From an uncultured bacterium (GTDB lineage: Bacteria > Fidelibacterota > Marinisomatia > SCGC-AAA003-L08 > GCA-2689995): a stretch of DNA of 64,000 nucleotides. This document shows, piece after piece, positions 4,538-15,178 of the stretch. The stretch covers positions 3,750 through 67,749 of the forward strand of contig CAZGWH010000002.1 of NCBI GenBank assembly GCA_964529325.1. The letters run 5' to 3'. The position numbers were made by a program, and so were the translations under genes. Below the pieces are notes generated by a model. That model did not search any database, was not told where the DNA came from, and saw nothing but the letters and a program-made list of their open reading frames with translations. Each line of letters begins with the position of its first letter. The first letter of the stretch is position 1.

Positions 4538-4816
4538 TTAACAAGAACTAGAGGAGTTGATAACTAAACCTTTTCCATTATAGTTATCGATGTAATCAAT
4601 AGTAAAGCCATTAATTATTTTTCTGTCACTTTCGCTTACAATAATTTCTATTCCATTTAAATTATATTTTTTATCTGTATGTTGGTGCTCATCCAGAGCC
4701 ATCCCTAAGCGTGGCCCACCTCAGCCAACACCAGCCATATAAATTCGTAGAAATTTCCCTTTATTGTCATCTAATATTTCATTAATAATTGGTTTTGCGT
4801 TGCTTGTAATATTCAT
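4538..4816 (-). CDS. HesB/IscA-like selenoprotein (in-frame TGA at 4721-4723, codon 32), 92 aa; missed by ORF track
   Basis: MNITSNAKPIINEILDDNKGKFLRIYMAGVG-U-GGPRLGMALDEHQHTDKKYNLNGIEIIVS...IDYIDNYNGKGLVINSSSSC*. The frame stays open 60 codons past TGA, and G-U-GGP.LGMALDE matches HesB-like selenoproteins. Confidence 0.85.
4684..4720 (-). promoter_or_regulatory. Putative bacterial SECIS hairpin of the HesB-like gene
   Basis: mRNA after UGA: GGU GGGCCA-CGCUUAGGGA-UGGCUC...ACC; 6-bp stem with AGGGA 15-19 nt from UGA. Confidence 0.55.
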
Positions 4817-4847
4817 TTTTATTTTTCATTTTTTGATTTAATATTAT

Positions 4848-4873
4848 GATGAATATATCTGAAAATGGTTACA
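4848..4873 (-). promoter_or_regulatory. Putative ECF-sigma promoter 1 (drives HesB-like selenoprotein)
   Basis: Minus strand TGTAACC-ATTTTCAGATATAT(14)-TCATC, 31 nt upstream of the ATG at 4816. Confidence 0.7.
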
Positions 4874-4904
4874 TTTTAATTTATTATAAATTCTAAATTA
4901 CTTA

Positions 4905-5327
4905 ATGAAAATTAAAATAGAACATGCAAATTTATGTGTCAAAGATATTGATGCGATGATTCACTTTTTACAAACAGCATTTCCTGAATTTAAAATAAGA
5001 TATGATGCAATAGAAATAGATGGGAATAGGTGGGTTCATATTGGTATGGAAACAATTTACTTTGCATTAGAACAAGCGACATTAAAACCTTCTAAATCGT
5101 GGATTCCGTATGCAGGATTTCCAGGAGTAAATCATATTGCATTTGAAGTTGAGAATGTAGAGGAAATTAAAGATCGATTAACAAATGCAGGTTATAAAAA
5201 CTCAACAATTCCTAATAACCATCCTCATCGAAAACGAATTTATTTTAAGGATGCTGAAGGAAATGATTGGGAATTTGTTCAATATTTATCTGATATTCTA
5301 AAAGAGAGAAATGATTATAGATTATAG
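4905..5327 (+). CDS. VOC/glyoxalase family protein
   Basis: IEHANLCV, VNHIAFEV and IYFKDAEGNDWEFV metal-binding VOC motifs. Confidence 0.85.
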   Translation: MKIKIEHANLCVKDIDAMIHFLQTAFPEFKIRYDAIEIDGNRWVHIGMETIYFALEQATLKPSKSWIPYAGFPGVNHIAFEVENVEEIKDRLTNAGYKNSTIPNNHPHRKRIYFKDAEGNDWEFVQYLSDILKERNDYRL

Positions 5328-5354
5328 GTATTTAGAATCAGTCAATTTATTTTT

Positions 5355-5380
5355 TGTAACCAAATGAAAATTCAATCATC
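5355..5380 (+). promoter_or_regulatory. Putative ECF-sigma promoter 2 (trx-sigma-anti-sigma operon; autoregulatory)
   Basis: TGTAACC-AAATGAAAATTCAA(14)-TCATC followed by AAAGTA and an AAGGAG SD. Confidence 0.75.
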
Positions 5381-5402
5381 AAAGTAATAAAAGGAGAATA
5401 GA

Positions 5403-5744
5403 ATGTTTGGATTTTTTAAAACAGAAAGTAAGACAGTGCATGTAACAGATAATACATGGAATGATGAAGTGATAAATTTTGATGGGGTTACACTTGTGGA
5501 TGTATGGGCACCATGGTGTGGACCTTGTAAAATACTCGGACCTGTTATTGATGAAATTTCAAATGAAATTGAAGGCAATGTTAAAATTTGTAAATTAAAT
5601 TCAGATGAAAATAATAAATCAAGAGAGCTTGGCATAAGAGGAATACCTACAATGTTGATTTATAAAAATGGAAAATTAAAAGATACTGTTGTTGGATTAA
5701 TTCCTAAAAATAATATCATAGAAAAAATAGAGGCATGGTTATAA
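5403..5744 (+). CDS. trxA: Thioredoxin
   Basis: WAPWCGPC active site; IRGIPT cis-Pro loop. Confidence 0.93.
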   Translation: MFGFFKTESKTVHVTDNTWNDEVINFDGVTLVDVWAPWCGPCKILGPVIDEISNEIEGNVKICKLNSDENNKSRELGIRGIPTMLIYKNGKLKDTVVGLIPKNNIIEKIEAWL

Positions 5745-5753
5745 TTTTATGGC

Positions 5754-6338
5754 ATGGATTCTATTACAGAAGAGTTAATTCAACTCGCAAAATCAGGTGA
5801 TAAAAAATCTTTATCAACTATTATTAATTTGTATTCAGAGAAACTCTATGGTTTGTCATTTAAATTTATGCGAAATAGAGAAGATGCAGAAGATGTTTTG
5901 CAAGAAACATTTTTAAAAATGATTAATAAAATTAATGTATTTAAGGGGGATTCTACTCTTTACTCTTGGTTATATCGAATTACAGTTAATACAGCTTTAG
6001 AAAAGCTTAGGAAGCATCACCCCTCACATTTTGATGTAAATCTTGACAATGTGGATTATAGTAAACATGATGAATTACCTTCGTTTGAGATTCCTTATTT
6101 GGATAAAAAAGATTTAAAGGATTTAGATTTTAGAAATGAATTAAATATTTTATTAAAAAAGATGAATAGTAAATTAAGAGTAATTTTTATTTTGAGAGAT
6201 ATTGAAGGTAATTCGGTTCAAGATACGGCTAAGATTTTAAATTTATCAGAAACTAATGTTAAAGTTAGGCTGATGAGAGCACGGATGTTCTTAAAAGAAC
6301 ATTTAACAGATTATTTCAGGGAAAGGATAGTTTCATGA
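5754..6338 (+). CDS. ECF (sigma-70 group 4) RNA polymerase sigma factor
   Basis: DAEDVLQETF (region 2), SWLYRITVN, region 4 VFILRDIEG...TAKILNLSETNVKVRLMRAR. Confidence 0.93.
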   Translation: MDSITEELIQLAKSGDKKSLSTIINLYSEKLYGLSFKFMRNREDAEDVLQETFLKMINKINVFKGDSTLYSWLYRITVNTALEKLRKHHPSHFDVNLDNVDYSKHDELPSFEIPYLDKKDLKDLDFRNELNILLKKMNSKLRVIFILRDIEGNSVQDTAKILNLSETNVKVRLMRARMFLKEHLTDYFRERIVS

Positions 6339-12816: not shown

Positions 12817-12821
12817 CAAAA

Positions 12822-12861
12822 TTTATTTGAGGTGGTTAATTTATTTAGCTACCTCAATAAA
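12822..12861. terminator. Long intergenic stem-loop (terminator or mRNA-stabilising hairpin)
   Basis: TTTATTTGAGGTGGTTAA...TTAGCTACCTCAATAAA. Confidence 0.65.
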
Positions 12862-12866
12862 TACTT

Positions 12867-12892
12867 TGTAACATCTTATACTTTTATTCATC
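12867..12892 (+). promoter_or_regulatory. Putative ECF-sigma promoter 4 (multicopper oxidase)
   Basis: TGTAACA-TCTTATACTTTTAT(14)-TCATC. Confidence 0.65.
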
Positions 12893-12938
12893 TAATTATT
12901 AAACCAAGTAATAATAAAAAAAGGAGTAAAGTAGTAAA

Positions 12939-15091
12939 ATGAAAAATAAATTGAAAAAATATCAATTTTAATAACAATAACTTTTGGGTTAATTAATGCT
13001 CAAAATCAATTAATCATACCAGAAACAATAAGTGGTAATGAGTTTAATCTATCATTACAATATGGAACAACTCAATTGTTAGATGGAAATGAAACTCAAA
13101 CGATGGGTGCAAATGGTGGAAATCTTGCCCCAACATTAATATTTCAAAAAGGTGAATATGTTAATATTAATGTAACTAATAATTTGGATGAAGAAACAAC
13201 TATTCATTGGCATGGAATGCATATAACACCTCAAAATGATGGTGGACCTCATTCTGTAATAATGCCTGGTGATACATGGAATCCTAATTTTACTGTAATG
13301 GATAAAGCGTGTACAATGTGGTATCACCCTCACCTTCATGAAAAAACAAATGAACATGTTACAAAAGGAATTACAGGTTTCATTATTATTAAAGATGAAG
13401 AAGAAGCATTATTAAACTTACCTCGTACTTATGGCGTAGATGATTTTCCTCTTAATTTACAAACCAAACAATTTGATAATTCAAACCAAATTGTAATCGG
13501 TGAACACATTGATAGTGTGCCAATGGCAAATTCAACGGTTGATGCATTTGTTGAATTACCTGCTCAAGTAGTTCGGTTGAGATTATTAAATGGTTCATCA
13601 ATGCGTGTATTTAATCTAGGCTTTTCTAATAATGCAACATTTTATCAAATTGGTTCTGATGGTGGTTTATTATCTGAACCAGTGAGTATGACAAGAGTAC
13701 TACTTGCTCCAGCAGAAAGAGCTGAAATATTAGTAGATTTAAGTGAATTGGAAGGACAAACATTTGAATTAAAAAGTTTTGGTTCTGAAATTCTTGATTC
13801 CTTTTATGGTACTTTAGATTTATCTTCTCCAATGGGAGGACCACCTCCTGGATATGATTCTAATGAATTAAATGGGGCTGATTTTACTTTATTAGAAATT
13901 AATGTTGGAATACAGACTAACAATCCTGTATTATCAATTCCTAATATGTTAGTTGATGTAACACCTTTAAATGAAGCTGATGCAACTGTAGCTAGGTCTA
14001 TAACTATCTCACCAGTTAATTTGCAGACGGGGGCTACAACTGGTCCATATTGGTTTAATAATGAATCATTCAATATGACTGTTATAAATGAAGTGGTTCA
14101 ATTGGGTGATACTGAAATTTGGTCAATATCAAATCAATCACCAGTATCGCATCCATTCCATATACATGATGTACAATTTTATATTTTAGATAGAAATGGT
14201 AATATTCCTCCCGAAAATGAAAGAGGACGAAAAGATGTCGTATTAGTAGGACACCAAGAGACTGTTCGATTCATTGCAAAATTTGAAGACCATGCTGACA
14301 ATCAAGTACCATATATGTATCATTGCCACATGCTTCAACATGAAGATGAAGGCTTAATGGGGCAATTTATTGTTGAAGGAGAAAATATTATTTATGGTGA
14401 TGTTAATTTTGATACCACTATAAATATTTTAGATGTTATTTCAACGGTTGGATATATATTAGGCACAAATCCATTTACATCTGAACAGTTAGTCGTAGCT
14501 GATTTGGATCAAGATGGTATTGTAAATATTATAGATATAATTCAAATTGTAAATATTATTTTAGATAGCAAAATAGAATTTCTTGAACCAATTGCAAAAT
14601 TACAACAAAATGAATTATCAGTTAGCGGTTCAGTGGGTGGAATTCAATTTAACGGTGAATTATTATCTTCAATAAATGGAAATGATATTGTACAGTCTGC
14701 AAATGGAATTACTCTAATTTATAATATGACTGGTAAATTAGAAACAACAACATTTGAATTATCTGAAAATTCATCTGATTTTGTAATTTCATCATCTATG
14801 GGTAATGAAGTAGAATTACAAACAGTAAGTCAATTTGCAATTTTAGATAATTATCCAAATCCATTTAATCCATCGACAACAATTTCTTATCAATTAAATC
14901 AAAGTGGAAAAATAAATATTAACATATTTGATTTAAATGGAAAATTAATTGATGAATTAGTAAATGATTTTAAAGAAATGGGAAATTATTCAATAAATTG
15001 GAATGGTTCAAATTTAGCAAATGGTGTTTACATTGTTAAATTACAATCAAATGAATTTACTGAAATGAGAAAAATTACTTTATTGAAGTAA
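12939..15091 (+). CDS. Secreted multicopper oxidase (CueO/laccase-like) with dockerin and C-terminal sorting domain; one-base frameshift in signal peptide
   Basis: HWHG, WYHPH, HPFHIH and HCHMLQHED Cu motifs; dockerin; YPNPFNP CTD. ATG 12939 (SD AAGGAG) reaches the main frame only if one A is added to the A6 run at 12954-12959. Confidence 0.88.
14593..15091 (+). repeat. Copy 1 of a 499-bp near-identical C-terminal module
   Basis: Aligns without indels to 15769-16267; about 24 substitutions by hand count (about 95% identity). Confidence 0.95.
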
Positions 15092-15109
15092 TTTAATTTA
15101 CAGAGGAGA

Positions 15110-15148
15110 AAATTTAGTGGGATAAATTTATTTTATCCCATTGAATTT
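15110..15148. terminator. Long intergenic stem-loop
   Basis: AAATTTAGTGGGATAAA...TTTATCCCATTGAATTT. Confidence 0.65.
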
Positions 15149-15152
15149 ATTG

Positions 15153-15178
15153 TGTAATTTTTAGTTATAAATATCATC
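15153..15178 (+). promoter_or_regulatory. Putative ECF-sigma promoter 5 (cupredoxin-dockerin gene; one mismatch)
   Basis: TGTAATT-TTTAGTTATAAATA(14)-TCATC. Confidence 0.5.

Follow-up and report, generated by a model that had tools for sequence, protein, structure and literature searches.

Marinimicrobia (SAR406), hardly any of which have been cultured, abound in oxygen-minimum and sulfidic waters, and a role in the marine sulfur cycle has been proposed for them. Here we describe a gene cluster from one member of this phylum, built around a gene for a sigma factor of the extracytoplasmic function (ECF) type, a putative anti-sigma factor and three small genes with an in-frame TGA, in which several transcription units are preceded by copies of one promoter-like motif. 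The window (the whole stretch of DNA that was analysed, 64,000 nucleotides) corresponds to positions 3750-67749 of contig C2 of a 2.3 Mb assembly in 118 contigs with 29.5% G+C; coordinates are those of the window unless another contig of the assembly is named. A protein scan of genome contigs with the sigma factor as query returned one close relative and unrelated ECF sigma factors of other phyla; loci L021-L024 were left out of the comparison. The closest public relative (L020) is a metagenome-assembled genome of Candidatus Neomarinimicrobiota (Marinimicrobia/SAR406), with a sigma factor 95% identical to that of the window. Matches to the sigma factor at E<=1e-20 were found in 182 of 301 sampled genomes of the phylum, and 42 loci were compared, 41 from relatives plus that of the window (22 in a first set and 20 in a second).

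The sigma operon and its promoter motif

Gene content was assigned by searches of Pfam, NCBIfam and PDB. The genes of the sigma operon and the predicted promoters of the window are:

4848-4873, - strand: ECF-type promoter 1 (TGTAACC-N14-TCATC), exact 26-bp motif, serving the hesB-like gene
5355-5380, + strand: ECF-type promoter 2, autoregulatory, exact 26-bp motif, serving the thioredoxin (Trx), sigma and anti-sigma genes
5403-5744, + strand: thioredoxin gene, trx (WCGPC; PF00085, E 4e-27)
5754-6338, + strand: ECF sigma factor gene, 194 aa
6335-6568, + strand: small soluble anti-sigma gene, 77 aa (C14, C26, C37-P-E-C40), 4-nt overlap with the sigma gene
6572-6597, + strand: ECF-type promoter 3, exact 26-bp motif, serving the unit from rhodanese to persulfide dioxygenase (PDO)
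12867-12892, + strand: ECF-type promoter 4, exact 26-bp motif, serving multicopper oxidase (MCO) 1
15153-15178, + strand: weak fifth promoter copy (TGTAAT..ATCATC), read from the sequence

The sigma factor is of the group IV type, with sigma2 and sigma4 regions only (matches to Sigma70_r2, r4_2 and Sigma70_ECF), and the trx gene is syntenic with it in most loci and, in most lineages, opens the operon. The anti-sigma protein gave no match in Pfam, has no hydrophobic segment (highest 15-residue hydropathy 0.19) and matches the RsrA model TIGR03988 weakly (E 3.9e-5, below the cut-off), as it does the ZAS region of RsiW (E 0.16). Among 22 orthologues the CxxC hardly varies and two more Cys are frequent; the His of the ZAS motif (-4) is kept in several of them, is replaced by Ser in the genome of the window and by Tyr, Leu or Phe elsewhere. 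Its predicted solubility, the nearly invariant CxxC and the weak match to RsrA suggest that the protein works like a small soluble anti-sigma factor of the RsrA type, yet is not a canonical member of the RsrA family. Of the ECF/ZAS pair named in an earlier reading of this DNA, made from the sequence alone (hereafter the sequence-only reading), the ECF half is borne out by the family matches, whereas the ZAS half is weak, with the CPEC present but a Ser at the position of the His.

The pattern TGTAAC-N14-19-TCATC occurs five times in the window against 0.22 expected, a number that none of 100 shuffles equalled. Four of these matches are the exact 26-bp form, TGTAAC-N15-TCATC, and the fifth (5463-5492, N19) lies within the trx gene. 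The weak copy at 15153-15178 has as its counterpart in the closest relative a perfect GTAAC-N16-CATC in the same place. The motif claimed by the sequence-only reading, ahead of four units and, more weakly, of a fifth, is confirmed. In the whole genome the 26-bp form was found six times, and all six copies are intergenic, are preceded by a T-rich flank and face a gene; the two beyond the window stand ahead of a second MCO gene (on C35) and of an operon on C7 (see below). The spacings N14, N16 and N17 together gave six matches, several of which are visibly in coding sequence, and these look like scattered chance matches. A seventh relaxed match outside open reading frames (ORFs), at C32:6947-6971, has neither the T-rich upstream flank nor the TCATC form and was set aside as due to chance. 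The copy ahead of the second MCO gene (C35:8010-8060) lies within a tandem duplication, where ACTAATATTTTCATCTTATTA occurs twice and gives two -10-like boxes.

Across the phylum, GTAAC-N16-CATC is found directly upstream of the start of the Trx or sigma gene in about 30 of the 42 loci, reaching down to about 40% sigma identity; in these sigma-operon loci the box has a T at -1 (29/30) and AA after the -10 box (CATC). This placement, upstream of the sigma operon throughout the phylum, argues for an autoregulated ECF promoter, and we take the motif to be a real, phylum-wide promoter of the ECF type that would be common to the target genes. An internal promoter equivalent to promoter 3 is present in L020, L026, L040, L041, L061 and L062, and L020, L025 and L026 keep a counterpart of promoter 4 ahead of their MCO gene. 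Of 13 class-level genomes, about 10 have GTAAC-N16-[CTG]ATC or CGTC ahead of the orthologue of the hesB-like gene, also where this gene is not linked to the sigma gene.

Three genes with an in-frame TGA

The genome has a complete machinery for the insertion of selenocysteine (Sec, U): selA and selB are adjacent on C5, the tRNA-Sec gene (selC; anticodon TCA) is on C24 and selD is on C14. The wing domain of SelB (PF09106) gave no match; the full selB model (TIGR00475) was matched. An in-frame TGA is present in selD as well (C14:1205-2122), and selenophosphate synthetase is therefore likely to be a selenoprotein itself. The sequence-only reading had pointed to three small ORFs with an in-frame TGA-GGT and a hairpin and had suggested that standard gene callers do not see them. 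All three were located, their TGA is kept among orthologues, and in public gene calls each is truncated or missed. These candidate selenoprotein genes are:

4538-4816, - strand: HesB/IscA-like selenoprotein gene, 92 aa (GVG-U-GG); TGA-GGT with TGA at 4721-4723, U32; hairpin at 4696-4717 (- strand)
7907-8038, + strand: single-transmembrane selenopeptide gene, 43 aa (..KKFGIST-U-GSRYIPQEEEKSK); TGA-GGT with TGA at 7994-7996, U30; hairpin resembling a selenocysteine insertion sequence (SECIS) at 8010-8026
8038-8220, + strand: FmdB-type zinc-ribbon selenoprotein gene, 60 aa (..C49..SGFS-U-GV-stop); TIGR02605, E 3.7e-12; TGA-GGT with TGA at 8209-8211, U58; SECIS-like hairpin at 8224-8238, past the stop

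The HesB-like protein gives a single match to NF038090 (IscA_HesB_Se; E 1.3e-16, residues 1-90) that runs through the TGA. Although its scores are below both curated cut-offs (60.7 bits against 85, and 33.2 against 66.35), its homology and the position of the Sec are clear. Each of 18 orthologues in other genomes of the phylum has exactly one in-frame TGA, and more distant matches of the IscA type have a Cys at the Sec position (GGG-C-SG). As in the HesB-like selenoproteins described by TIGR01911 and NF038090, the Sec takes the place of the first conserved IscA Cys, within G-x-G-U-G-G; the form of the window differs as a divergent subfamily with a single C-terminal Cys and scores under the cut-offs.

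In the FmdB-like protein all four Cys of the zinc ribbon are retained and the Sec is residue 58 of 60. In 28/28 sigma-linked loci the gene has GF[STG]-TGA, separated by one or two codons (A, G, AS, AN, AT, AG or GV) from a second stop, and a Cys lies 6-9 residues ahead of the Sec, again in all 28. Three further contigs (L095-L097) have ..YT- or ..GFG-TGA-AN-stop, and the divergent subfamilies of the FmdB-like protein (..SAYT-U-AN and ..SGFG-U-AN) show the same behaviour of the TGA. The hairpin, YUGC-RGUY-GCAR, starts 8-12 nt past the UGA and has 16 distinct inner stems; in a plain MAFFT alignment 73% of the cells pair, as opposed to no more than 54% with the partner columns slid, and six of six pairs show changes on both sides. 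TGA makes up 16% of the stops in this genome, and a comparable hairpin with a G in the loop was found at 14 of 224 ordinary TGA stops. A search with the single sequence returned only its own truncated copy, and the relatives came by profile searches; the 120 homologues listed of 216 all end exactly at the TGA, in keeping with gene callers that shorten the protein to about 57-71 aa or miss the gene.

The sequence-only reading had counted both the HesB-like and the FmdB-like protein among known selenoprotein families. This is upheld for the former, as a divergent subfamily, but not for the C-terminal Sec form of the latter. Two sequences of an FmdB-family selenoprotein were reported in the Global Ocean Sampling (GOS) study (PMC2398784), and a 2026 review lists the family with the motif UxxU and the Sec inside the zinc ribbon (PMC13188914). 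The domain family (TIGR02605) is the same; there, however, two Sec replace ribbon Cys, whereas the form of the window has a single Sec near the C-terminus and its SECIS past the stop. Since the published Sec is inside the ribbon, the GFS-U-[GA] form does not belong to a known family. In its Sec one or two residues from the C-terminus, its flexible tail and its SECIS past the stop it resembles UXX-star, KCU-star and mammalian thioredoxin reductase (GCUG-COOH), but its fold is that of a zinc ribbon and it matches none of NF041114, NF041211, NF041197 and NF033934. Assignments to the 'dual CXXC small selenoprotein' (NF041197) and to UXX-star were tried and dropped for lack of a match.

The gene for the 43-aa peptide overlaps its neighbours on both sides, by ATGA with the DUF302 gene and by TAATG with the FmdB-like gene. 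Each of the 25 loci with a located peptide ORF has TGA directly after G-[IV]-x-T and an open frame as far as the next gene's start; a hairpin is placed about 13-30 nt past the UGA, and its stems covary (UUCCUC/GAGGAG, CAUCC/GGAUG, UCCCC/GGGGA, ACUCA/UGAGU and UUCUCA/UGAGAA). Public gene calls of the peptide are 29-aa truncations. When 1.84 billion representative proteins were searched with a profile, 183 relatives emerged, many of them full-length with G[IV]PT-C-MSGAC; thus, the classical Sec/Cys pairing holds for the peptide. A few relatives have W or G at the Sec/Cys position, where TGA may be read under another genetic code. Neither the Sec nor the Cys form is matched by a Pfam or NCBIfam model, and the peptide was assigned neither to DUF2892 nor to the FeoB-associated Cys-rich proteins, since no family was matched up to E=1. 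Both the peptide and the FmdB-like protein are absent from the selenoprotein models of Pfam and NCBIfam and from the 2026 list of 119 families. Comparison of the three TGA ORFs makes it credible that all are conserved selenoprotein genes.

The 3′ arms of the two hairpins in this unit overlap the Shine-Dalgarno sequence of the next gene (GAGGAG before the ATG at 8038, GGAGG before the ATG at 8240), an arrangement by which Sec decoding could couple to the translation of the next gene.

Conserved core, lineage additions and expression

The remaining genes assigned to the units are:

6633-6950, + strand: cytoplasmic rhodanese (CATGSRS; PF00581; no signal peptide)
6950-7327, + strand: exported or lipoprotein-type rhodanese (CRSGNRS; PF00581; hydrophobic N-terminus with LFSSC)
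7327-7524, + strand: DUF6132 small membrane protein (GCNSGSC; PF19628)
7524-7910, + strand: DUF302 protein (PF03625, E 4e-26; PDB 1j3m, TT1751, E 1e-22)
8240-8578, + strand: glutaredoxin (Grx)/GST_N-like protein (CPFS; GST_N_2/3, weak Grx2 match)
8587-9288, + strand: type I PDO, ETHE1-like (PDB matches)
9397-10386, + strand: YeiH-family transporter (PF03601, E 6e-69; TIGR00698)
12939-15091, + strand: multicopper oxidase 1 with dockerin and type-IX secretion tail (Cu-oxidase_3/2, Por_Secre_tail)
15221-16267, + strand: type-IX-secreted dockerin protein, N-terminal domain without assignment (Por_Secre_tail and Dockerin only)

A module of these genes follows the sigma and anti-sigma genes in 28 of the 42 loci (20/20 of the second set and 8/22 of the first), in the order (rhodanese)-DUF6132-(DUF302)-peptide-FmdB-like, either in the sigma operon or behind a second copy of the promoter. 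DUF6132 is present in the sigma-linked module at all 28 loci that have the FmdB-like gene, with the peptide ORF between the two in 25 of them. Two further contigs bear on the peptide: in L114, DUF6132 precedes a Cys-form peptide beside a DsbD_TM-thioredoxin fusion, and in L113 (52% G+C) Trx, a Cys-form peptide and an FmdB-like protein that ends in GFS-U-A, with a hairpin, come after an anti-sigma gene with the canonical HxxxCxxC. The predicted conserved core of the regulon consists of the Trx, sigma and anti-sigma genes, rhodanese, DUF6132, DUF302, the two small selenoproteins and the unlinked HesB-like selenoprotein. In families f1 and f2 alone, genes come next for the Grx-like protein, the small protein orf124, the type-IX-secreted protein, a cytochrome c peroxidase, an ALDC-like protein and the MCO; those for PDO and YeiH are found only in the window and L020, which are of the same genus. 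The operon on C7, behind the sixth copy of the motif, holds genes for a molybdopterin oxidoreductase that resembles PhsA/PsrA (NF012032, E 6e-72), for a 4Fe-4S and an NrfD-type subunit, for two YeeE/YedE halves and for a membrane rhodanese. As tested in the class, the motif precedes this psr operon in the same genus only; elsewhere another gene precedes psrA, and in L102, L103 and L106-L108 this gene has a Cys-rich C-terminal domain (e.g. ..CWEADPKGKECKNINCRDCDVYNLANQC..) and may encode a different, dedicated psr regulator. Synteny and motif, which the sequence-only reading had named as points to check in relatives, are kept at 28 and about 30 of the 42 loci respectively. That reading did not recognise a described module here, and no description was found in the literature searched on FmdB, DUF302 or Marinimicrobia selenoproteins, on anti-sigma factors and sulfane sulfur, or on DUF302 and persulfide.

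The assignment of the PDO is firm as judged from structure-linked homology, with full-length matches (E 1e-60 to 1e-69) to PDB 4ysb, 5ve3, 2gcu and 4chl, the last being human ETHE1, as against far weaker matches to glyoxalase II (GloB; E 1e-18 to 1e-20); the metal motif HxHxDH can be read from the sequence as THVHADH. The gap between the PDO and YeiH genes holds neither a terminator, as far as a terminator scan can tell, nor a motif copy, and YeiH may belong to the same transcription unit. The Grx-like gene is kept in L020, L025 and L026, and a di-haem cytochrome c peroxidase gene lies within the cluster. The start of the MCO1 gene (12939-13076) is broken by a -1 frameshift in the A-run at 12954-12959, where the closest relative has A7 in place of A6 and thereby an intact signal peptide, MKNKLKKISILITITFGLINAQ; the A-run could represent a real frameshift, a phase-variable tract or a gene with a non-ATG start. 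The product of 15221-16267, which has homologues in L020, L025 and L026, showed no Pfam copper domain at E<=0.1 and no C-x(n)-H-x(n)-M after its single Cys, and its AlphaFold (AF2) model is unusable (pLDDT 35.6). Thus, of the gene content listed by the sequence-only reading, Trx, ECF sigma factor, two rhodaneses, DUF6132, DUF302, a Grx/GST_N-like protein, an ETHE1-type PDO, YeiH and MCO are recovered, whereas the 'cupredoxin' at 15221-16267 is unconfirmed. At the protein level its linker and type-IX tail (15769-16267) are near-identical to those of MCO1 (14593-15091), and the N-terminal domains are unrelated. Some of the mapped contigs fit two places.

Expression in situ was assessed with contigs from five metatranscriptome runs of two studies, at an identity of at least 97%; three DNA runs agree with the sequence and show no indels. 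About 20 RNA contigs, with a depth of up to 21, cover 4640-4802, 5430-6194, 6500-7274, 7351-7821, 13021-13358 and 15643-15805; for the 40 kb of the window between 16.5 and 56.5 kb there are about 10 short RNA contigs with a depth of 2-5. The contigs at 4640-4802 span the TGA of the HesB-like gene. No RNA contig was found for 5114-5429, and contigs begin at 5430-5441, in keeping with transcription that starts between the glyoxalase gene and trx. A single contig (6500-6854) runs across promoter 3, indicating read-through from the sigma operon.

A proposed thiol-responsive circuit and its alternatives

We consider it probable, judging from comparative sequence data, that the cluster is part of an autoregulated ECF sigma regulon with a small, soluble and Cys-rich anti-sigma factor of the RsrA/ZAS type, conserved in Marinimicrobia (Fidelibacterota). 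In the circuit that we propose, a thiol-reactive agent would attack the CxxC of the anti-sigma factor; in this organism the agent is most likely to be sulfane sulfur or polysulfide at an oxic-sulfidic interface. We favour sulfane sulfur or polysulfide because rhodaneses are kept in many families and because the genus has recruited both PDO/YeiH and the Psr/YeeE operon. The freed sigma factor would then transcribe from tGTAAC-N16-CATC promoters its own trx-sigma-antisigma operon, the operon of rhodaneses, DUF6132, DUF302, selenopeptide and FmdB-like protein, and the gene for the HesB-like selenoprotein, to which the genus would have added PDO with YeiH, two secreted MCOs and the operon for a polysulfide/thiosulfate reductase of the Psr/Phs type with YeeE/YedE and rhodanese. 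Three TGA codons would be read as Sec, helped by hairpins 10-20 nt downstream, and thioredoxin could reset the switch. DUF6132, the selenopeptide and the FmdB-like protein would probably form a membrane-associated thiol/selenol relay, with the Sec of the peptide at the inner face (as expected from the positive-inside rule) and that of the FmdB-like protein, with a Cys 6-9 residues upstream of it, on a flexible Ser/Gly tail; such a relay may shuttle sulfur, or else reducing equivalents, between the rhodaneses and the thiol systems of the cytoplasm. In favour of the relay is the Cys-form peptide that adjoins a DsbD_TM-Trx fusion, as seen in one contig only.

Several observations speak against this proposal or narrow it. 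The ZAS His is a Ser in the genome of the window and is variable across the family, and the genome holds three other genes for sigma factors of ECF size. The hairpin of the peptide gene lies within the codons of a conserved P-Q-x-E-E stretch, so that part of its conservation could be at the protein level, and no Cys form of the FmdB-like C-terminus occurs among the 120 homologues listed of 216. RNA contigs cannot place 5′ ends; none was found for 7963-12846, which includes the two small selenoprotein genes, although absence cannot be read from contig data. The MCO1 gene has a frameshift at its start, and three independent DNA runs have no indel there. The links to PDO/YeiH and to psr are limited to the genus and that to the MCO to two families, and the conserved core alone does not say 'sulfane sulfur'. 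The coherent system of sulfane sulfur, Se and Cu put forward by the sequence-only reading is therefore partly sustained: the conserved core has rhodaneses and selenoproteins, but with PDO/YeiH, Psr and MCO confined to certain lineages the coherence is in part lineage-specific.

How specific the circuit is can be read in more than one way. A bolder form of our proposal, which we regard as possible and advance tentatively, has a dedicated ECF-type sensor of reactive sulfur and an as yet unrecognised DUF6132/G-[IV]-P-T-[U/C]/FmdB-Sec membrane relay, functionally akin to DsbD/CcdA and with Cys...GFS-Sec of the zinc-ribbon protein as a swinging C-terminal arm, which would move sulfane sulfur or reducing power between the exported rhodanese and cytoplasmic Trx/PDO; if true, it adds two new selenoprotein families. 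The same genes could instead serve a regulon for general thiol-oxidative stress (disulfide, peroxide, oxygen) like those of SigR-RsrA or SigH-RshA, with the rhodaneses and PDO as accessory thiol-repair genes of a microaerophile. Such a role would suit a conserved core of Trx and small Cys/Sec redox proteins, the resemblance of the anti-sigma factor to RsrA and RsiW, the di-haem cytochrome c peroxidase gene in the cluster and the genus-specific occurrence of PDO and psr; however, many families have rhodaneses in the module, the PDO and Psr/YeeE operons of this genus have acquired the motif, and among the genes that the motif precedes no catalase, Prx or Msr was found, and we find a general stress regulon rather unlikely.

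A response to selenium or to a soft metal (Cu, Hg) appears improbable to us. Here, selenite or Cu(I) would attack the thiols of the anti-sigma factor, DUF6132, the U-peptide, FmdB-U and the rhodaneses would traffic Se or bind metal, and the MCOs would detoxify Cu(I). That three conserved targets are selenoproteins, that the promoter is found at two MCO genes and that GCxSGxC of DUF6132 resembles Cys motifs of the YeeE/YedE proteins of the psr operon would all be accommodated, but the MCO link is seen in two families only, no gene for a copper ATPase, CopZ, Mer or SelD lies in or beside the units, and copper binding by the product of 15221-16267 is unconfirmed. Finally, in a genome with 29.5% G+C the motif copies might be AT-rich chance matches, and each TGA might simply end a short ORF as an ordinary stop; the relaxed GTAAC-N16-CATC occurs only 10 times in the genome, about the count given by a rough, uncomputed estimate from composition. 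Against this stand the six full-motif copies, all intergenic and correctly oriented, the retention of the motif upstream of orthologous genes throughout the phylum, and the 28/28 FmdB-like and 25/25 peptide loci with TGA, covarying hairpins, frames open to the next start and Cys homologues. An artefact is already contradicted by these comparative data, and we give it next to no weight.

The closest precedents for the regulatory circuit are two ECF12 switches of thiol-oxidative stress, SigR-RsrA of Streptomyces coelicolor and SigH-RshA of mycobacteria and corynebacteria, which share with it a co-transcribed small soluble Cys-containing anti-sigma factor, autoregulation and Trx in the regulon; by analogy its regulatory logic would be that of SigR-RsrA, where Trx in the regulon makes a reset loop possible. 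The system of the window differs from these in its phylum, in having Trx first in the sigma operon, in an anti-sigma factor without the conserved ZAS His and with the extra Cys14 and Cys26, and in the core targets DUF6132, DUF302, rhodaneses and three selenoproteins. The promoter differs too, GGAAT-N18-GTT being that of SigR-RsrA and SigH-RshA, as opposed to GTAAC-N16-CATC in the window. In the ECF16 group (Caulobacter SigF and Bradyrhizobium EcfF), with the consensus tGTAACc-N16-CGAA, the -35 box and spacing are near-identical to those of the window (PMC3420878; PMC3511200). The -10 boxes differ, CGAA in ECF16 and CATC in the window. The ECF16 anti-sigma factors (NrsF/OsrA) are membrane proteins, whereas that of the window is predicted to be soluble. 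In target genes the nearest likeness is to the persulfide operons controlled by CstR, BigR/SqrR and FisR (S. aureus cst; Xylella/Acinetobacter BigR), where PDO, rhodaneses and a putative sulfite/sulfate exporter form one inducible unit and YeeE/YedE-type transporters also belong to the regulon. Their regulators, however, are of the CsoR, ArsR or sigma54 type instead of an ECF sigma/anti-sigma pair; moreover, no SQR gene was seen in the cluster of the window, and PDO is a late addition in one genus.

What is new here is a Sec-based version of such a module, two types of selenoprotein outside the curated lists (a family of 43-aa membrane peptides with Cys/Sec pairs, and a zinc ribbon with a penultimate Sec and the SECIS past the stop) and the definition of a phylum-wide promoter, together with its extension to PDO, Psr and MCO genes and expression in situ. 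Marinimicrobia thereby gain a concrete, if predicted, regulatory circuit, in which a single sigma factor and a single promoter consensus go with a defined set of targets, and DUF6132 and DUF302, two uncharacterised families, become linked to a redox/sulfur module.

Three further observations were made in the window. The gene at 1663-4458, upstream of the cluster, encodes a secreted protein of 931 aa with Cys/Gly modules, a dockerin-like region and a type-IX secretion tail, and has a bidirectional terminator (4482-4517) in common with the hesB-like gene. The product of orf124 (10453-10827) is a small exported Cys-containing protein without a family match, encoded beside the module in L020, L025 and L026. 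At 52950-53079, very abundant RNA contigs (depth up to 363) match only pieces of about 30 nt and then run on into sequence that differs; the probable explanation is an element shared with other organisms, either a conserved small RNA or one like a tRNA.

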